Shown in pieces: positions 1 through 6,513 of a stretch of DNA of 13,324 bases. The translations under genes were made by a program, and so were the position numbers. The notes below the pieces were generated by a model. It saw nothing but the letters and a program-made list of their open reading frames with translations, had not been told where the DNA came from and made no database searches. The DNA is from a virus (taxonomy: Duplodnaviria; Heunggongvirae; Uroviricota; Caudoviricetes): positions 1 through 13,324 of the IMG/VR virus record IMGVR_UViG_2695420744_000004. The stretch is one strand, 5' to 3'. Numbering within the stretch: position 1 is the stretch's first letter; the number at the start of each line of letters is the position of its first letter.

Positions 1-5
1 ACTTT

Positions 6-63
6 AAAAAGGGCGGCAGAGCAGTCACGGAGTAAAACTGATACCGCCAAACGTCACCAGAAA
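6..63 (-). ncRNA. dicF: DicF-like small RNA, 3' portion with terminator at the window edge
   Basis: The minus-strand reading of 63..1 is UUUCUGGUGACGUUUGGCGGUAUCAGUUUUACUCCGUGACUGCUCUGCCGCCCUUUUUAAAGU, which matches my recollection of the ~53-nt E. coli DicF RNA. It has GGCGG/CCGCC pairing and ends in a U-run like an intrinsic terminator. It lies at the distal end of the leftward early operon, as dicF does in Qin. Recalled, not searched. Confidence 0.6.
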
Positions 64-305
64 ATGGATAACAGAGGGCGTTGCAGCGTGGTTGTCTCTT
101 AAGCGTATGGTCAACCTGACAACCCGGTGCTCCACAGGGGGAGAAGAGTACCCCCGCCATACTTACCGCCGCGCCGTTTCGCGGATTGCCACAACCGGGA
201 GCGCACGGTCGACGAAAATTTAACGACAAGCCATCTATGAACCAGAAACCTCGCCGTGCGCTTTCGTGTTGTGTGCCTGCTTTTAACCACGTCAGGCGAG
301 GTGGT

Positions 306-334
306 ATCCTTAAAATCACCACAGTTTTAAGGAT
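306..334. promoter_or_regulatory. perfect 10-bp inverted repeat (ATCCTTAAAA / TTTTAAGGAT, 9-bp spacer) just upstream of the 345 start codon
   Basis: Arms at 306-315 and 325-334 are exact reverse complements. No U-run follows on either strand, so a protein-binding site or RNA structure is more likely than a terminator. Confidence 0.3.
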
Positions 335-344
335 TCATTAAGCA

Positions 345-665
345 ATGTCGCAACCACCAATAAATCCACTTAAGAACATGAAAATTGATTACTGGTATAA
401 AGCGCTTACAGTTGTTGGCGCTGCGTTGTTTGTCTTTAATGGAACGTCTTTTTTCGACAGATATCCCGTTGTTCCATTGGGTTTTTTGTCCTCCGGCATC
501 TTTTTTATTGGTTTGGGAGAGTGGATTAACCACCCTCTCAAAGTGAGATTTATTGGTCCTGGAGTTTGGGCTCGTGGATATAACCGTTCTTCGTGCTCAC
601 TCGGTATCATCTTCGACATACTTGGTTGTTTCCTGATTGTTACAGGAGTCGTCAAGTTCTTCTGA
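345..665 (+). CDS. small integral membrane protein (about three hydrophobic helices), possibly superinfection-exclusion-like given its sieB-like position
   Basis: 106-aa ORF with three hydrophobic stretches (ALTVVGAALFVF, VVPLGFLSSGIFFIGLGEW, SLGIIFDILGCFLIVTGVV). It is on the opposite strand to the flanking leftward early genes, as sieB is in Rac. Function is inferred from position only. Confidence 0.5.
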   Translation: MSQPPINPLKNMKIDYWYKALTVVGAALFVFNGTSFFDRYPVVPLGFLSSGIFFIGLGEWINHPLKVRFIGPGVWARGYNRSSCSLGIIFDILGCFLIVTGVVKFF

Positions 666-902
666 TGTAAAACCGCAAATGGGGCACGTAACGGGAATTT
701 TGAAAAGCGTTTCTCCGGGTTCCAGAACAAAATTTTCTGCGGTCTGATTTTGCTTCTCATATTTGTGCTCCGCGTCATTGTGAGAGCACATTCTTATTCT
801 GAGTGCCTGTTTAAACTCACTGAAGCTGAGAGCTTCTTCGCCTTCGGCAAGGCCTTCGAAGTATTCTTCGTAAGCCTTTTCCATGATTGTGTCGAAATCC
901 AT
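597..902 (-). CDS. hypothetical early-left protein (101 aa, acidic N-terminus, C-terminal CPICG motif)
   Basis: ATG at 902 sits one nucleotide after the upstream gene's stop (TGAtATG) with an AGGTGA Shine-Dalgarno inside that gene's end, indicating translational coupling. The 3' end overlaps the convergent membrane-protein ORF by 69 nt. Confidence 0.45.
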   Translation of the reverse strand: MDFDTIMEKAYEEYFEGLAEGEEALSFSEFKQALRIRMCSHNDAEHKYEKQNQTAENFVLEPGETLFKIPVTCPICGFTSEELDDSCNNQETTKYVEDDTE

Positions 903-903
903 A

Positions 904-1059
904 TCACTCACCTGAGTTTCTTTCCAGCCAGCGACGGGCACCATTTTCGGTTTTAAACGTTTTGCTTTTGGTATACGTCATCGCGGTGAACGTACCGTCC
1001 TGGTTGGGGAACACGCCACATACCAGAGATTCGTTGTTGCCAAGATCGATAGTATCCAT
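904..1059 (-). CDS. small prophage early protein, YdaF/YdfA-like (51 aa)
   Basis: Internal ATG at 1059 preceded by GAGGT; product MDTIDLGNNESLVCGVFPNQDGTFTAMTYTKSKTFKTENGARRWLERNSGE. It is the first gene after the PL-like promoter. An alternative in-frame start at 1140 would give 78 aa. The family call is recalled with moderate certainty. Confidence 0.5.
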   Translation of the reverse strand: MDTIDLGNNESLVCGVFPNQDGTFTAMTYTKSKTFKTENGARRWLERNSGE

Positions 1060-1238
1060 GCTGACCTCATTTCCCCTTAACGCCGGGGTAGCGGAACAAA
1101 AACCTGCTGCATAGTTATTAAAGTTGAACCCTGCCGTCATGTTCTTACGCCTCGGGCTGGCTACTTAACCCCTGACCACTGCCTGGTAACTCGAAGTATT
1201 GCCTGGCGTTCTGTGGGGCGGGGTGGGTTGATGAAATA

Positions 1239-1279
1239 ATGATGCACTTTTAAAGTTATGATGTCAACACTTATAAAGT
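1239..1279 (-). promoter_or_regulatory. PL-like leftward promoter with two operator repeats
   Basis: On the minus strand: -35 TTGACA (1267-1262), 17-bp spacer, -10 CATCAT (1244-1239). Operator-like ACTTTTAAAGT (1246-1256) lies in the spacer and ACTTATAAAGT (1269-1279) just upstream, 23 bp apart. The first is the exact reverse complement of the site in the PR spacer (2308-2318). Confidence 0.45.
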
Positions 1280-1291
1280 TAGCTTTTGATC

Positions 1292-1319
1292 AATAAAAAC
1301 CGCCTCGTGTGAAGCGGTT
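1292..1319 (-). terminator. intrinsic terminator downstream of the parE-like gene
   Basis: Minus-strand RNA AACCGCUUC-ACAC-GAGGCGGUU followed by UUUAUUG: 9-bp stem (one G-U), 4-nt loop, U-rich tail, about 17 nt after the toxin stop. Confidence 0.6.
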
Positions 1320-1335
1320 CTGCGAAAAAAGAGGA

Positions 1336-1617
1336 TTATCCAGGAAATTGTCGTCTGGAGTGGGTGACACTTACTATTTCAACACTCGAAGCGGCTACAC
1401 GGTACAGAATGATATAGTTAGGATGAGCTACAATCTCACGCAAGCCAAACGCTCTGTCGCTTGATGGGTATAAGTACGGATGTTCAGATAAAGCTAAAAC
1501 ACATGTCTCAATGCGAATCTTTAGCCTGCGTGCGGCATGGAGATTTTCTTTTGCAATATAGGCTACGATCTGACGTAAATCATCACGTGCAGAAGGTAGC
1601 CATAAAATGGGCAGCAT
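1336..1617 (-). CDS. parE: ParE/RelE-superfamily type II toxin (93 aa)
   Basis: Small basic protein with the typical toxin size. Its start overlaps the stop of the upstream antitoxin ORF. It resembles the ParE2 toxin of the paaR2-paaA2-parE2 system described in E. coli O157 prophages (recalled). Confidence 0.8.
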   Translation of the reverse strand: MLPILWLPSARDDLRQIVAYIAKENLHAARRLKIRIETCVLALSEHPYLYPSSDRAFGLREIVAHPNYIILYRVAASSVEIVSVTHSRRQFPG

Positions 1618-1808
1618 TACACACTCCCGCTAGTCGCAGCAATTTGGGCAATGAGATTTTCCATTTCTGCCATTACATCATCATGAGGAATTGCAGGGCG
1701 CGGATCTGCAAGATTTGCAGCTACTTTTGCACGTAGCCATTCGTTGTAATTATTTTCTTGCTCAACGGTTTCAAACTCAGAAACCATCGGCGAAAGGGCA
1801 GTGTTCAT
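1617..1808 (-). CDS. paaA: PaaA-like antitoxin (63 aa)
   Basis: Start chosen at the internal ATG (1808) preceded by AGGAGG; product MNTALSPMVSEFETVEQENNYNEWLRAKVAANLADPRPAIPHDDVMAEMENLIAQIAATSGSV. Size and sequence match my recollection of the 63-aa PaaA2 antitoxin. Coupled to the downstream toxin. Confidence 0.75.
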   Translation of the reverse strand: MNTALSPMVSEFETVEQENNYNEWLRAKVAANLADPRPAIPHDDVMAEMENLIAQIAATSGSV

Positions 1809-1837
1809 AACATACCTCCTTTGGCTTATGATGTAGA

Positions 1838-2245
1838 CTATGCTCGGTGCCCTTTCTGGGCAGCGAGCCATCTTGCAACAGTGCGCTCCATTGATTCTTT
1901 TTTGTCTTTCATGTCTTTAAGCATTTTTTCTTGATCTTCCTCTGGAAATGCTCCGAATGTTTGAAGCAGTTCCATTTGCCTGGGGCCTATTTTCATAGTA
2001 TCTGGCACCACAACCTGCTCTTCTTCGTTTGGCGGTAACATAAACCAATATGGGGGATAACCCGTTACTTCAGAAAGTTTATCAAGATTAGCTGTTGATG
2101 GACTTGTGATTCCGTGAACCCACTTTTGTACCGATTGCTGGGCAACACCAATCCTGCGGGCTAGTTCTGCCTGCTTAAGTCCTGTTTTTTCCAGTACCAA
2201 TTTTATTCGGTACGTGGTTATTTCAAGGGTGGTCATTCGCTTCAT
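1838..2245 (-). CDS. paaR: HTH (XRE/CI-type) repressor, PaaR-like; first gene of the three-gene operon and in the cI position of the switch
   Basis: HTH motif GLKQAELARRIGVAQQSVQKWVHG. Divergent from the Cro-like gene across an operator-bearing 107-bp region. There is no obvious S24 peptidase domain (135 aa only). The first codon lies about 7 nt downstream of a TAAAAT -10, suggesting a leaderless mRNA. Confidence 0.7.
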   Translation of the reverse strand: MKRMTTLEITTYRIKLVLEKTGLKQAELARRIGVAQQSVQKWVHGITSPSTANLDKLSEVTGYPPYWFMLPPNEEEQVVVPDTMKIGPRQMELLQTFGAFPEEDQEKMLKDMKDKKESMERTVARWLAAQKGHRA

Positions 2246-2352
2246 GCATTCATTTTACATAAAAAAAGTGTAACTAGCACAATCAGCTTAAAGGTGTTGA
2301 TAAACTAACTTTAAAAGTGTATAAATCATGGTGATTCACTGGAGATAACGAT
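2246..2352. promoter_or_regulatory. divergent promoter/operator region (PR-like, and a PRM-like promoter for the repressor)
   Basis: Plus strand: -35 TTGATA (2297-2302), 17-bp spacer, -10 TATAAA (2320-2325) preceded by TG, and GGAGA Shine-Dalgarno 8 nt before ATG 2353. Three AAAG(G)TGT repeats at about 2265, 2290 and 2313, roughly 23-25 bp apart (OR1-3 analogues). Minus strand: TAAAAT at 2257-2252. Confidence 0.6.
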
Positions 2353-2619
2353 ATGCATGAATGTTTAAAAAATAAAATTCACCAAAGAGGGTTATCCCAA
2401 GCAGGTATTGCTCGTTTGATTGGATTACCGCAACAGGTTGTGTCTCGATGGGCTAATGGTCAGCAGGTCCCTGCATCAAGGGTTCTGCAACTTTGTGAGA
2501 TTATGGCGTGGGAGGTTACCCCACACGAACTCCGACCTGATATTTATCCTAACCCAACAGACGGCTTGCCTGCTGAGTTTCAGACTAGCACACAGCCAGC
2601 GACGGGAGTTGATTCATGA
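2353..2619 (+). CDS. ydaS: YdaS-family Cro-like HTH regulator
   Basis: HTH motif SQAGIARLIGLPQQVVSRWANG. Divergent from the repressor and overlaps the downstream ydaT-like start (ATGA). Confidence 0.75.
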   Translation: MHECLKNKIHQRGLSQAGIARLIGLPQQVVSRWANGQQVPASRVLQLCEIMAWEVTPHELRPDIYPNPTDGLPAEFQTSTQPATGVDS

Positions 2620-3041
2620 AAATCAAGCATGAGCACATCCGCATGGCGATGAATGCCTGGGCATATCCTGACGGTGAGAAGGTGCCAGCTGCTGCTATTG
2701 CCAGAGCGTATTTTGAACTGGGGATGACATATCCCGAGTTGCACAACGACGACAGGCACAACGCGCTCTATCTCAACACCCAAAAGATTTTCCGTTGGCT
2801 GGATAAAGACACTCCTGATGCTGTTGAGAAAATTCAGGCATTGTTACCGGCGATCGAAAGGGCAATGCCACCTCCGCTGGTAGCCCGAATGCGCAGCCAC
2901 AGTTCCGCTTATTTTCGGGAGCTGGTGGAGACGCAGGAACGGCTAGTGAAAGATATCGATGATTTCGTTGCATCAGCGATCGTTCTGTTCGACCAGATGA
3001 ATCGTGGTGGTCCTGCGGGTAATTCCGTGGCTGTGCATTGA
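2616..3041 (+). CDS. ydaT: YdaT-family protein (CII-like regulator analogue)
   Basis: 141-aa protein translationally coupled to the ydaS-like gene; synteny with Rac ydaS-ydaT. Family recalled, not searched. Confidence 0.7.
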   Translation: MKIKHEHIRMAMNAWAYPDGEKVPAAAIARAYFELGMTYPELHNDDRHNALYLNTQKIFRWLDKDTPDAVEKIQALLPAIERAMPPPLVARMRSHSSAYFRELVETQERLVKDIDDFVASAIVLFDQMNRGGPAGNSVAVH

Positions 3042-3112
3042 CTGAAAATATTTATACCGGATCGCTTCCGGCAATTCGTGAGTAAAAAGATTCGGTCTCA
3101 GAAGAGGTGAGT

Positions 3113-4153
3113 ATGGCTAATGCCTGGCTCAGATTATGGCATGACATGCCAAATGACCCTAAGTGGCGAACAATTTCCAGGGTGTCAGGACAGCCAATCG
3201 CAACAGTGATGGCTGTGTATATCCACCTTCTGGTGAGCGCGTCACGAAATGTCACGACATGTCACGGCGTGTCACTACGTGGTCACATTGATGTCACAAC
3301 GGAAGATTTAGCAAGTGCACTTGATGTGACGGAAGAAGTAATTGATTCAATTTTGCAGGCGATGCAGGGGCGGGTGCTTGATGGAGATTTAATCACTGGA
3401 TGGGAAAAACGCCAGGTAGCGAAAGAGGATAACGGCAACGTTTCGCAAACCGCGAAATCCCCGGCAGAGCGTAAGAGAGCACAACGCGAGAGGGAAAAAT
3501 TACGAAAACAGAATGAGGGGTGTCACGATGAGTCACGCATATGTCACGACATGTCACTACGAGTCACGACAGATAAAGATACAGATAAAGAATTAAACCC
3601 CACACATAACGCGCGCGTGCGCGAGAGTGCTCCGACCAGTGAATCGAACGGTACGCCGTTGCAGGCAGCGGAACCTGATTACCAGGAAAGCCTGAGCGAA
3701 CCCATCGGGAAGTTTCCGATGGCCGGTGGCTGGCATCCGTCGCCGGATTTTCGACGGCGGGCTGCACTGTGGGGAGTGGCTCTGCCGGAGCCTGAATTTA
3801 CACCTGCTGAACTTGCCGCCTTCAGGGACTACTGGGCAGCTGAGGGGAAAGTTTTTACGCAGGTTCAGTGGGAGCAGAAATTCGCCCGTCACGTAAATCA
3901 CGTCAGGGCGCAGGTTAAACCAGTCAGCAAGGGGGTGCGTCATGCAGCAGCACCAGGTGGCACCGCATCACGGGCAGTTCGGGAAATTCGGGCAGCACGT
4001 GAGCAGTGGGAACGTGAAAACGGATTTGTCAGCGACGGAAACGGCGTGGAAGCTGTGGGAGCTCATGGGGGAGGTTTATTCAAACCGCTGGACTCAGAAG
4101 AACGGGGCCGCACCTTCGAAGCTCTGGATTGCCCAGATTGGCGCGATGACTGA
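3113..4153 (+). CDS. replication initiator (lambda O analogue) with a C-terminal DnaT-like domain
   Basis: Two iteron clusters lie inside the N-terminal coding region. Residues FPMAGGWHPSPDFRRRAALWGVALPEPEFTPAELAAFRDYWAAEGKVFTQVQWEQKFARHV align with the recalled C-terminal domain of E. coli DnaT (…ALWGVAL…YWQAEGKVFHHVQWQQKLA…). AAGAGG Shine-Dalgarno before ATG 3113. The 3' end is uncertain because the frame overlaps the P-like gene. Confidence 0.7.
   Translation: MANAWLRLWHDMPNDPKWRTISRVSGQPIATVMAVYIHLLVSASRNVTTCHGVSLRGHIDVTTEDLASALDVTEEVIDSILQAMQGRVLDGDLITGWEKRQVAKEDNGNVSQTAKSPAERKRAQREREKLRKQNEGCHDESRICHDMSLRVTTDKDTDKELNPTHNARVRESAPTSESNGTPLQAAEPDYQESLSEPIGKFPMAGGWHPSPDFRRRAALWGVALPEPEFTPAELAAFRDYWAAEGKVFTQVQWEQKFARHVNHVRAQVKPVSKGVRHAAAPGGTASRAVREIRAAREQWERENGFVSDGNGVEAVGAHGGGLFKPLDSEERGRTFEALDCPDWRDD
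3241..3297. repeat. iteron cluster 1: six GTCAC(G) repeats at about 10-bp spacing inside the initiator gene
   Basis: GTCAC cores at 3241, 3251, 3261, 3271, 3282 and 3293. Confidence 0.6.
3521..3597. repeat. iteron cluster 2 (five GTCAC repeats at 10-bp spacing) plus adjacent AT-rich tract: candidate replication origin
   Basis: GTCAC cores at 3522, 3532, 3543, 3553 and 3563, followed by AGATAAAGATACAGATAAAGAATTAAA (3571-3597). Iterons next to an AT-rich region is the lambda ori arrangement. Confidence 0.65.
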
Positions 4154-4607
4154 ACAGCAAATCAGGCTGGTCTGCCGTCAGTGCATGGACCGCTGCCGGG
4201 CGGGTGAAACGTGGCCCCCGGACCTGGCTGAGTTTGTTGCGCTGATTTCGGAGAGTGGGGCAAATCCATTTGGTCTTACGGTGGATGCCGTGATGGAAGA
4301 GTACCGGCGCTGGCGCAATGAATCCTGGCGGTACGACGGGAGTGATAAATACCCGTGGCCACAGCCTGTGCTGTACCACATTTGCCTCGAGATGCGCACC
4401 AGAGGGATTGAACGTCAGATGACTGAAAGTGAGCTGAAACGACTTGCAGAACGACTGTTGACCAAATGGGCAAAGAATGTTGGTAACGGCATGAGTGTTC
4501 CGCCAGTGCGACGACAACTGGAAGGGCCAAAACACCCGCCAGGGCCAACGCCAATTGAGTTACTGAAACAGGAATATGAGCGCCGGAAAGCGGCTGGTTT
4601 TGTCTGA
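3942..4607 (+). CDS. lambda P-like replication protein (DnaB helicase loader)
   Basis: The C-terminal two-thirds align with recalled lambda P (ours YPWPQPVLYHICLEMRTRGIERQMTESELKRLAERLLTKW against lambda YPWKSNAHYWLVTNLYQNMRANALTDAELRRKAADELVHM). Strong AAGGGGG Shine-Dalgarno 6 nt before ATG 3942. A later start at ATG 4065 is possible. Confidence 0.8.
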   Translation: MQQHQVAPHHGQFGKFGQHVSSGNVKTDLSATETAWKLWELMGEVYSNRWTQKNGAAPSKLWIAQIGAMTEQQIRLVCRQCMDRCRAGETWPPDLAEFVALISESGANPFGLTVDAVMEEYRRWRNESWRYDGSDKYPWPQPVLYHICLEMRTRGIERQMTESELKRLAERLLTKWAKNVGNGMSVPPVRRQLEGPKHPPGPTPIELLKQEYERRKAAGFV

Positions 4608-4640
4608 ATTTGAGAAATGATTTTGTCGGAGGAAATTTTA

Positions 4641-5354
4641 ATGGAAACCGTTTTTGACGCACTGAAAGCACTGAAAAGAGCCTCTTCACAGGAGGTGTCG
4701 GCCCGCCTTGGAATCAGCCGCGAAGATGCTGTCAACGAGCTGTGGAAGCTGAAACGCCGTGGTGAAGCAGATAACAAGGGGTCGATGTGGTGGCTGACGA
4801 TTGAGGCAACTGAAATGGTCACAAAAACCACTGCGGAGATGCTGATTAACTCAATTGAACAGCATGGTCCTCAGTCGGCTGACGAACTGGCGTTAATGTT
4901 CGGGATTACCTCCCGCCGGGCGAATTCAACGCTGGCAATGGCAATAAGCAAAGGTCGTCTGATTCGAGTAAATCAGAACGGTAAATTTCGTTACTGCCTG
5001 TCGGGCGATAATTTACCAGCAGAGCCGAAAGCTGCATCGGTAACGGAAACTGCTGGTAAAGCCTTTCCTCAGACAGCAGGTGTTGCGTTACCAGTCCGGG
5101 AAGCGGAAACACAGGAAGAAATTAAAACTGAAAGTGTGGCGGTCACAGTGCAGTCACAGCCGTCGTTCACCAGAAAGCATCCGGATAGTCTGATTTTACC
5201 ATCGCTGCATGTGGCTAACCGCGAACTGCGCCGGGCAAAAGGTCAGGTTCAGAAGTGGGAGCGAGTCTGTGCTGCGCTGCGTGAGCTGAACAAGCACCAG
5301 GATATTGTTCGACAGATTGTCGATTCCTCCAGTCGTATTGTGTCGGAAAAGTGA
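4641..5354 (+). CDS. hypothetical protein with two predicted winged-helix-like segments
   Basis: GGAGG Shine-Dalgarno 8 nt before ATG 4641 (the ORF track's upstream start at 4617 lacks one). Function unknown. Confidence 0.55.
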
Positions 5355-5369
5355 TTGCCGGAGGTACTT

Positions 5370-5762
5370 ATGGCAAGAGTATTTACACAGGAAGAGCGGG
5401 AAGAAGTGAAGGCGCGCATTGTGGAATTCGTGCGCCTGAGCGGACGAGAAACTTTTCGACAACTGGCAGATAAAACGGGTGTCAGTAAGACCGCTATTCG
5501 TCGTTTATCTGGTGCGCTTGCGGCCAGTGGTGATGTCTGGCTCTCTGATTGCGGGGTATTTCCATCAGAGCAGGCGTATCGCGTATGGCGTAAGACACCG
5601 GAGAAGGCTGCTGACCCGACACTGATTCGAAAGTTACCTGACGGAGAAATACGTCGTTACAACAGATGGCAGAACATAATTTGTCGTGAGTGCCGCCAGA
5701 GCGAGGTTATGCAGCGTGTGCTGGCGTTCTATCGGGGAAACTTTCAGGAGGTGATGGAGTGA
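5370..5762 (+). CDS. hypothetical protein, possible HTH (QLADKTGVSKTAIRRL)
   Basis: GGAGG Shine-Dalgarno 6 nt before ATG 5370. The stop overlaps the next gene's GTG start. Confidence 0.5.
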   Translation: MARVFTQEEREEVKARIVEFVRLSGRETFRQLADKTGVSKTAIRRLSGALAASGDVWLSDCGVFPSEQAYRVWRKTPEKAADPTLIRKLPDGEIRRYNRWQNIICRECRQSEVMQRVLAFYRGNFQEVME

Positions 5763-6055
5763 GGGTGAGAGTTTATATTGCCGGTCCAATGACGGGATAT
5801 GAAAATTTCAACCGTGAGGCGTTTCACAAGGCGGAAGAGGAACTGAAACGGGAAGGGCATACCGTCTTAAACCCGGCAGTACTTCCGGACGGGCTGACAC
5901 AGCCGCACTACATGGATATTTGCATGGCAATGATTCGTTGTGTGGATGCGATTTACATGCTGAATGGCTGGCAGCGGTCAGCGGGCGCTAAGGCAGAGCT
6001 GGCACTGGCGGAGAAACTGGGGCATGCGGTGATTTATCAGGAGGTGGCTCAATGA
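5759..6055 (+). CDS. DUF4406-like / nucleoside 2-deoxyribosyltransferase-like small protein
   Basis: GTG start 8 nt after AGGAGG; N-terminus VRVYIAGPMTGYENFNREAF…VLNP matches the recalled DUF4406 signature (VYIAGPMTG). Translationally coupled on both sides. Confidence 0.55.
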   Translation: MRVRVYIAGPMTGYENFNREAFHKAEEELKREGHTVLNPAVLPDGLTQPHYMDICMAMIRCVDAIYMLNGWQRSAGAKAELALAEKLGHAVIYQEVAQ

Positions 6056-6513
6056 GAGAGGTTAACTATGAGGCGCTTCGTGAGGCAGCACAAAACTATC
6101 AGTCGACGCTGGCGTGGTATCAGGCTATCCCGGACAGCCCAAATGCTGAACGGGATTGTGATGCGGCTCTTGCTGCGTTTAAGCGTCACATCCGTCATCG
6201 GGAAGCGGATATTATCGCTGATTTGCTGGATGGACTGGAAGAAGCAAAATCACAACTCAACGAGCAGCGTGAGTATTACGAAGGCGTTATCTCTGATGGG
6301 AGCAAGCGTATTGCTGCACTGGAAGCGCGGGAAGTTCAATTACCGACTCGCTACGACCTTCGATATGGACACCCGATAAATGCAGATGAGCGACATGTCA
6401 TGATACCTAAAGAAAATGGCAGTTGGCTTTACCTGATTGACCTAGAACACGCATTACGCGTCGCTGGCATTCGCATCAAAGGAGAGGAGCATGGAAATAA
6501 AACCAGAGGATGA
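6052..6513 (+). CDS. hypothetical nin-region protein ending in the shared C-terminal IRIKGE motif
   Basis: ATGA overlap with the upstream gene and AGGAGG Shine-Dalgarno. Its 3' end carries the 18-nt sequence CATTCGCATCAAAGGAGA that also ends the gene at 6943..7368. Confidence 0.6.
   Translation: MREVNYEALREAAQNYQSTLAWYQAIPDSPNAERDCDAALAAFKRHIRHREADIIADLLDGLEEAKSQLNEQREYYEGVISDGSKRIAALEAREVQLPTRYDLRYGHPINADERHVMIPKENGSWLYLIDLEHALRVAGIRIKGEEHGNKTRG

Follow-up and report, generated by a model that had tools for sequence, protein, structure and literature searches.

Evidence for a conserved 212-nt out-of-frame overlap between an O-like initiator gene and a P-like helicase-loader gene in a Rac-like prophage of Escherichia coli

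Organization of the O-P locus

The stretch analyzed here is a 13,324-nt piece of viral DNA (IMG/VR record IMGVR_UViG_2695420744_000004, positions 1 to 13,324), referred to below as the window, and it carries the replication module of a lambdoid, Rac-like E. coli prophage. Its plus strand carries an O-like initiator gene of 346 codons (3113..4153) followed by a P-like helicase-loader gene, for which we propose a long form of 221 codons (3942..4607). The two overlap out of frame by 212 nt (3942..4153, plus strand; 70.7 codons), P being in the +1 frame relative to O. A sequence-only reading of the window had reported this overlap as 211 bp; its presence and frame relation hold, and the length is corrected to 212 nt. 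That reading left a choice between a true overlap of 70 codons, a spuriously open tail of O and a frameshift lesion with an earlier real O stop. The comparative data described below make a genuine, conserved overlap very likely.

The O-like open reading frame (ORF) is open from GTG 3107 or ATG 3113 (Shine-Dalgarno (SD) sequence GAGGTG) to the TGA at 4151..4153 (plus strand), an end that agrees with the sequence-only reading, and the same ORF is called by the NCBI Prokaryotic Genome Annotation Pipeline (PGAP) in an identical E. coli record. The stop is embedded in P codons Thr70-Glu71 (acT GAa). The gene consists of an N-terminal replisome-organiser-like part, iterons, a DnaT domain and a 79-residue tail. 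The DnaT domain (PF17948) matches at 63.4 bits (cut-off 25) over residues 201-267, which are encoded by nt 3713-3913; the NCBIfam DnaT model scores 96 bits, under its equivalog cut-off of 201, and O is therefore not DnaT itself. About twelve TGTCAC(G) repeats with 10-nt spacing lie in two clusters inside the gene (3239-3300 and 3521-3570) and are probably origin iterons, like those of lambda O. Translated in frame, these repeats give a series of CH/VT peptides; homologues differ in the number of copies, with extra CHDESR units in P0167 and P0175. An AlphaFold2 (AF2) model of O has an overall predicted local distance difference test score (pLDDT) of 55.6. It comprises a low-confidence linker at residues 268-287, where the SD and the ATG of P are located, a helix of low to moderate confidence at residues 284-302 (nt 3962-4018) and a low-confidence tail at 303-346 with pLDDT below 50. 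The peptide ENGFVSDGNGVEAVGAHGGGLFKPLDSEER lies within residues 279-346.

The 221-codon P ORF matches PF06992 (Phage_lambda_P) at 57.8 bits (cut-off 26) over residues 59-188, and no NCBIfam model matched the long P. The labels O/DnaT-like and P-like, given earlier from the letters alone, thus agree with the family matches (63 bits for PF17948 and 58 bits for PF06992). A profile built from P homologues matches the lambda P chains 8v9t and 8v9s, and hhalign aligns P with lambda P at 92% probability; by profile P belongs to the lambda P family, and DnaB loading is its predicted function. In the AF2 model, based on a 66-sequence alignment, the mean pLDDT is 81.6; residues 1-23 are disordered (below 50) and block means are about 84-95 over residues 31-190. 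The best Foldseek match of this model in the PDB is full-length lambda P (9oa1_Z; 218 aligned columns, E 9.5e-7, template modelling (TM) score 0.47), with an identity of about 15-19% in that alignment, and sequence-level likeness covers residues ~59-195. Lambda P has a disordered N-terminal 'lasso' at residues 1-29 and a compact domain II at about 30-119 (PMC12661323). The register obtained, in which residue r of the window protein corresponds to lambda residue r+8, puts P residues 36-70 inside lambda domain II.

The P start is preceded by the SD sequence AAGGGGGT (3929..3936, plus strand), located inside O codons K273-G274-V275. Its AAGGGGG core (3929-3935) lies 6 nt ahead of ATG 3942, with a predicted anti-SD duplex energy of -11.8 kcal/mol in the window. 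The ribosome-binding site, the ATG and the TAA that closes the P frame upstream (3894..3896, plus strand) are all present as the sequence-only reading described them, and the first two are conserved in position across genera. Two further ATG codons of the P frame on the plus strand have to be considered: the nearly invariant codon of Met42 (4065..4067), which is the annotated start of 180-181-aa forms in many genera, and ATG 4146..4148 (Met69), the RefSeq/PGAP start of a 153-aa form with the 8-nt overlap ATGACTGA, which we judge not to be the true start. Residues 1-68 of P, which the 153-aa form does not contain, include the peptides FGQHVSSGNVK and LWELMGEVYSNR. RNA folding around the P start (3895-3995) was unremarkable (z = 0.29), so an SD-sequestering hairpin opened by O translation is unsupported.

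A side observation concerns an orphan P-family gene of 189 codons in Erwinia sp. MMLR14_017 (locus L036, 2474-3043), which is located directly 3′ of a phosphotransferase system (PTS) transporter gene and has no initiator gene upstream. It appears to be a stranded remnant in which the W-LW...KNG block is retained. As an orphan beside a PTS transporter it was rejected as a non-overlapping control and was used only for the retention of this block.

Conservation of both frames across enterobacterial genera

Stop density per codon is 0.042 for the P frame inside O and 0.054 for the O frame inside P. From these densities the chance that a single sequence is open is about 0.23 for the P-frame stretch and about 0.14 for the O-frame stretch, so that one sequence alone could be open by chance. 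We therefore rely on related loci: 38 were fetched from species-representative genomes, and 33 were analysable. They span P identities of 42-95% and at least 15 enterobacterial genera, among them Escherichia, Citrobacter, Enterobacter, Klebsiella, Pluralibacter, Phytobacter, Kluyvera, Salmonella, Scandinavium, Pectobacterium, Buttiauxella, Serratia, Samsonia and Rouxiella. Over these 33 loci the same densities predict about 40-45 stops in the P frame and about 65 in the O frame; none was found in either frame across the overlap, which removes the chance explanation. With both frames open in all 33 diverged loci, the 70-codon overlap envisaged from the single sequence is borne out.

The frame one base behind P is open from the upstream initiator gene through the conserved P block in 33 of 33 loci. 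According to the sequence-only reading, initiator homologues ending before about 3950 would make the overlap an artefact. All P-paired O homologues read further: measured from the first base of the Lys-Asn-Gly (KNG) codons, their stops lie 20-92 nt downstream (mostly 56 nt) in all 33 loci. The O stop drifts in position and never precedes the motif EPLDxEE[RW]; it lies 12 codons earlier in Salmonella bongori and is read through in one E. coli variant. Indels in the overlap region are multiples of three. The O tail has the consensus S-x-A-V-Q-Q-I-R-A-A-R-E-x-W-E ... G..G..L.EPLDxEE[RW] across genera. O homologues that stand beside DnaC-like loaders (Aeromonas phage pAEv1818, TL-2011b) lose similarity at residues ~265-273, end at ~265-305 and have little or no overlap with the loader gene.

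The P start is conserved as well. In nearly all loci an upstream ATG is found 126-159 nt before the KNG codons, and GGAGG or GGGGG precedes this ATG at a distance of 6-9 nt. Mean anti-SD energies over 34 loci were -9.3 kcal/mol for this ATG, -5.2 for Met42 and -2.2 for Met69, compared with -2.6 for background ATGs. Two loci (L010 and L019) have only the upstream ATG and Met42 as in-frame starts. Over the P start the O frame reads G-G-x-(H/N/D/Y)-(A/V/E), that is, NAT-Gnn codons. The O residue varies across genera within NAT-Gnn, a variation by which the ATG of P is preserved.

Division of selection between the two frames

Variability was calculated as the mean pairwise value per codon position in 19 closely related sequences, and the ratio of nonsynonymous to synonymous differences (pN/pS) was obtained by the Nei-Gojobori method. 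Because the 'synonymous' sites of O are second positions of P in 4047-4150, O-frame pN/pS was dropped as a test of O function there, and variability at third P positions (P3) and stop avoidance were used instead.

The first half of the overlap (3945..4046, plus strand) encodes O residues 279-312, including helix 284-302, and P residues 2-35, the disordered leader; O dominates in it. The second half (4047..4150, plus strand) is P-dominant and encodes P residues 36-70, the start of the folded domain, and O residues 313-346 of the low-confidence tail. Variability in the O-only part shows the typical O pattern (0.505 at third O positions, O3). In the first half it is highest at O3/P2 (0.376), and in the second half it is 0.124, 0.093 and 0.361 at P1, P2 and P3, compared with 0.158, 0.105 and 0.494 in the P-only part. 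The ratios follow the same division: pN/pS is 0.80 in the P frame (control 1.31) and 0.59 in the O frame (O-only part 0.37) over 3945-4046, and 0.17 in the P frame (P-only part 0.19) and 1.96 in the O frame (non-coding control 2.22) over 4047-4150. Both variability and pN/pS shift from an O to a P pattern at about 4047. In addition, third positions are less variable in the overlap than outside it for both genes: 0.361 vs 0.494 for P3 (Mann-Whitney U test, p=0.0035; p-values here and below are indicative), and likewise for O3 (p=0.0015).

Comparison of the 33 loci at the protein level gave a similar picture. Mean pairwise amino acid identity in the helix part is 0.47 for O vs 0.24 for P, and in the second half it is 0.60 for P vs 0.39 for O. 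Both halves avoid those synonymous codons that would put a stop into the other frame. In the first half none of 38 codons is of this kind, against 351 of 985 (36%) in the O-only part (p 1.6e-7). In the second half the figures are 0 of 117 against 266 of 919 (29%) in the P-only part (p 1e-16), this latter test being partly circular since the region ends at the first O-frame stop. Two P codons hardly vary in their third base: among the Gly codons at Gly43, GGG accounts for 18 of 21, and at Ser47 TCG accounts for 18 of 20. These codon choices give Gly and Glu in O, which hints at some selection at the O level in the motif GG.LFEPLD.

As judged from these sequence comparisons, purifying selection is detectable within the overlap and is divided, acting mainly on O in 3945-4046 and mainly on P in 4047-4150. 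In the structural models the predicted ordered part of each protein lies over the disordered or low-confidence part of its partner.

Alternative explanations

The best-surviving alternative, which we still consider unlikely, is that P starts at ATG 4065 (Met42). This would give a protein of 180 aa and an overlap of 89 nt, the upstream 41 P-frame codons being open by chance or as a by-product of O. Met42 is nearly invariant, forms of 180-181 aa are annotated by PGAP and others in Salmonella, Citrobacter, Klebsiella, Enterobacter, Brenneria and Pectobacterium, and GGGAG, provided by Trp-Glu codons, precedes Met42. However, this SD-like sequence is only moderately strong, and its spacing is just 3 nt (approximately) in the window, whereas the upstream ATG with its strong SD is conserved in nearly all loci and O residues vary in such a way as to keep it. 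No P-frame stop occurs in the 24-35 codons upstream of Met42 in the 33 loci, with the stop-creating O codons avoided as given above. The conserved P-frame block starts 6-7 codons upstream of Met42 and includes A35, W36, L38 and W39. The codon of Trp39 is always TGG and that of Trp36 is TGG except in four loci, whereas six codons (CTG, TTA, CTA, CTC, CTT and TTG) are used for Leu38; the fixed Trp codons together with the variable Leu codons show P-frame selection upstream of Met42. The start of P should thus be upstream of 4047, where ATG 3942 is the sole conserved candidate. Finally, the AF2 helix 25-46 spans Met42, with pLDDT 91 from residue 31.

A programmed +1 frameshift from O, giving an O-P fusion and making initiation at 3942 unnecessary, is very improbable. 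P is indeed in the +1 frame relative to O, a G5 run (4067-4071) is present in the overlap, and two ORF calls (P0185 and P0198) fuse the genes. Nevertheless, the conserved SD and ATG offer an ordinary route to P, and both fused calls come from Logan assembly sequences with one or two members. P0185 fits a 49-nt deletion between TGGGA repeats (window 4007-4058; O Trp299 / P Trp39), and a 1-nt change in the G5 run would account for P0198. We identified no conserved slippery or stall motif, although no systematic search for slippery sites was run. The two fused ORFs are probably errors or rare variants and not programmed frameshifts.

More improbable still is the RefSeq/PGAP model, in which the 153-aa P starts at ATG 4146 and is translationally coupled to O through the 8-nt overlap. 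This start is annotated in identical and related RefSeq records, and such a short ATGA-type overlap resembles that of lambda O/P (4 nt). The comparative data contradict it: the ATG is missing in 10 of 34 loci, many homologues having Leu, which is common there, or another residue, and its mean SD energy of -2.2 kcal/mol equals the background. The PF06992 match opens 10 residues upstream of this start, and within the N-terminal half conservation is highest in the 33 residues that precede it. This block (residues 35-68, AWxLWExMGEIYSNRWTxKNGxxPSxLWIAQIG) is found in alignments of 33 and 66 homologues; W50, K53, N54, G55 and W62 are invariant in it, and W39 is invariant in the 33-locus alignment. 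The 153-aa form would also be deprived of three helices of a confidently predicted domain (25-46, 48-54 and 60-67; AF2 block means ~88-93 from residue 31 on).

The least probable explanation, an artefact in which a frameshift lesion, an assembly indel or decay of a prophage gene stretched O beyond a real end near 3950, may be dismissed: cryptic prophages do gather frameshifts, of which PGAP flags one nearby (7371-7549 in L003 coordinates), and indels do fuse O and P in the two database ORFs, but the comparative data contradict it, since an identical or near-identical arrangement is present in 658 E. coli genomes (coverage >=80%), the same frame relation recurs throughout the 33 loci with indels only in multiples of three, and the O-frame helix at 3962-4018 is conserved at the protein level even on unrelated initiator types.

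Overall, the four alternatives (the Met42 start, the PGAP start, the frameshift lesion and the programmed fusion) are each contradicted by several independent observations.

Mosaicism of the initiator and the O tail

The tail and P are attached to at least five types of initiator: DnaT, Phage_rep_O, DUF1376, HTH_36/DnaD_N and unclassified. In E. coli the C-terminal half, beginning with the motif NPTHNARVRES, is common to at least four N-terminal types. The joint is sharply conserved (window 3596-3625; O residues 162-171, NPTHNARVRE): downstream of it all share the DnaT domain and the tail, and above it stand unrelated modules, namely replisome-organiser-like, DUF1376, T5orf172+DUF1376 and a helix-turn-helix (HTH) type beginning MSIDALRW. 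On this sequence pattern the joint looks like a recombination boundary of the replication module.

The O tail was present with P partners only and absent with the DnaC-like loader. An exhaustive phmmer search with the tail alone returned 25 clusters, and the family is therefore narrow; the best matches are at the C-terminus of proteins of about 317-360 aa or at that of short fragments. A word-index search with the tail alone was uninformative and gave eight E. coli fragments only. In lambda the C-terminal part of O contacts and recruits P. By analogy, we infer that the tail helix may be a P-docking element; the association of the tail with P fits such a role and does not prove it.

Proposed interpretation

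We consider it very likely, on the comparative sequence evidence, that the overlap is a genuine and conserved feature of 212 nt, in which P starts from its own SD and ATG 3942 inside O, the constraint is divided by frame, and O ends 70 codons later. P would be translated from its own ribosome-binding site (AAGGGGG, ATG 3942) within a Gly-rich, predicted-disordered linker of O, and O translation would carry on for 70 codons past this start to the TGA ending at 4153. Over the first ~105 nt the DNA would be shaped by the conserved C-terminal helix of O (S-A-V-Q-I-R-A-A-R-E-W-E), the P product being a poorly conserved disordered leader at the position of the lambda P 'lasso'. Over the last ~105 nt it would be shaped by the first helices of the P folded domain, where lambda P has its domain II. 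In this part the O product would be a low-confidence tail that mostly follows the synonymous sites of P and stays open at least through EPLDxEE[RW]. The overlap would be tolerated because the constraint is split between the two frames.

Several points weigh against this interpretation. The last 35 codons of O show no amino-acid-level constraint of their own (pN/pS 1.96 vs 2.22 in the control). To that extent the earlier suspicion of a spuriously open O tail was justified for about these codons; the frame of the tail is nonetheless kept open, and we treat it as translated. P residues 2-34 are poorly conserved (mean pairwise identity 0.25), and their presumed translation rests on the conserved SD and ATG, the absence of stops and a pN/pS of 0.80 against 1.31 in the control. 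A minor second start at Met42, producing a shorter isoform, is possible. Sequence likeness to lambda P begins only at residue ~59 (Pfam) or ~87 (hhalign), so that the suggested equivalence of P residues 36-86 with lambda domain II depends on the AF2 model and on a multi-domain Foldseek alignment of low TM score (0.47). Lambda O and the O tail had no detectable similarity, and the comparison thus gave no sign of homology between the docking element and lambda. Finally, the loci are phylogenetically related, and the p-values given above are therefore overstated.

Placement of the O helix and the P N-terminus on the same DNA would hold adaptor and loader together when mosaic recombination swaps the DNA-binding modules. 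Tentatively, and with the balance of our judgement somewhat against it, the overlap might be a device for co-inheritance, making an indivisible 'adaptor plus loader' cassette that could be grafted onto unrelated origin-binding modules; initiation of P inside O might in addition hold the P:O ratio low, the loader being toxic in excess.

Prophage context

Window positions 3000-4700 match E. coli chromosomes at 100%. The PGAP gene order in the identical E. coli record is a repressor/Cro-like gene, YdaT, a 'DnaT-like ssDNA-binding domain-containing protein', 'replication protein P' and DUF1627. The nearest deposited phages are Rac-SA53 (ydaU/ydaV) and the PPompW prophages, with 87-90% nucleotide identity over window 3572-4670. 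The published work on ydaU/ydaV concerns the Rac prophage of K-12, whose replication module we take to be different.

Other features of the window were recorded in passing. A RelE/ParE toxin and RelB antitoxin pair is present on the minus strand at 1336-1808 (PGAP, identical record), flanked by a DUF1391/ydfB remnant and a repressor-like HTH gene in the immunity region of the prophage. About 1.5 kb is directly duplicated (8312-~9800 and 10047-~11530, 92-93% identity); the duplicated stretch contains a hokD-like ORF and a gene for DUF968, which is truncated in the first copy (237 aa vs 351 aa). The otherwise identical record NZ_AP045820.1 has a single copy of this stretch. At 7370-7548 the identical record has a hypothetical gene called 'frameshifted' by PGAP, and the window shows an intact 171-aa ORF (7370-7885); the two may differ at 7370-7548. 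On the late-region side of the prophage, matching window 12600-13324, positions 570782-571031 of NZ_AP045820.1 have a DNA methyltransferase gene followed by tRNA-Ile and two tRNA-Arg genes, as read from the record.

Comparison with known systems and annotation

The annotation of P varies between records. In the identical record and two relatives, ATG 4146 is the RefSeq/PGAP start of P, and Rac-SA53 is annotated likewise; the PPompW records and Citrobacter phage Chris1 have still shorter, non-overlapping forms. Other pipelines give forms of 221-223 or 180-181 aa, and one GenBank assembly already has genes of 346 and 221 codons with a 212-nt overlap. Some records thus contain the overlap implicitly and others avoid it, and in the literature we found no paper that discusses it. 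Rac-SA53 and PPompW contain the same module, and the long overlap is present in their sequences (L001 and L002) but unrecognised, P being annotated there as 153 aa (8-nt overlap) or 140 aa (no overlap). The matter extends beyond these phages: hundreds of E. coli genomes in RefSeq have a 'replication protein P' of 153 aa, and forms of 140 to 181 aa are found elsewhere. As the 153-aa form is without the 68 N-terminal residues, and with them three helices of the predicted folded domain, structural or functional work on it would use a truncated protein.

When bacterial or phage genes overlap by more than 100 nt, the usual verdict is an error in the start codon. In this case the long overlap is very probably right and the short one the error, with constraint divided between frames in two old, essential genes. 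An O tail that travels with the loader across unrelated initiators would mark a specificity boundary of the replication module. We know of no O-P contact mapped in this family, for which the tail is a testable candidate.

Short coupled overlaps (1-8 nt, of the ATGA or ATGACTGA type) also join adjacent same-strand genes of one operon, and the RefSeq model of the locus is of this type. The difference is that, at the start supported here, 70 codons of O are still to be read before its stop; coupling by termination and reinitiation could therefore not be the mechanism, and P would initiate on mRNA traversed by O ribosomes.

Viral overlaps in which one product is ordered where the other is disordered, with constraint split by frame, have been described (PMC9119678). 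The likeness to long same-strand overlaps of viruses is that each half is dominated by a single frame. Unlike those, the products here are terminal extensions of old, essential replication genes and not accessory proteins 'overprinted' de novo, and O and P are expected to be physical partners.

The closest parallel is lambda O-P, which has the same order of an initiator gene with iterons followed by a PF06992 loader gene. Iterons are located inside O in lambda and probably inside the O-like gene here, and in the models P appears collinear with the four-part architecture of lambda P (disordered leader, two compact helical domains and C-terminal segment). The two systems differ in that the lambda initiator is Phage_rep_O whereas that of the window is a DnaT-domain protein, and in the overlap itself, which is 4 nt in lambda and 212 nt, out of frame, here. 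Overall, the O-P overlap is a variant of the lambda O-P arrangement and a correction of a widespread annotation, and not a new kind of system.

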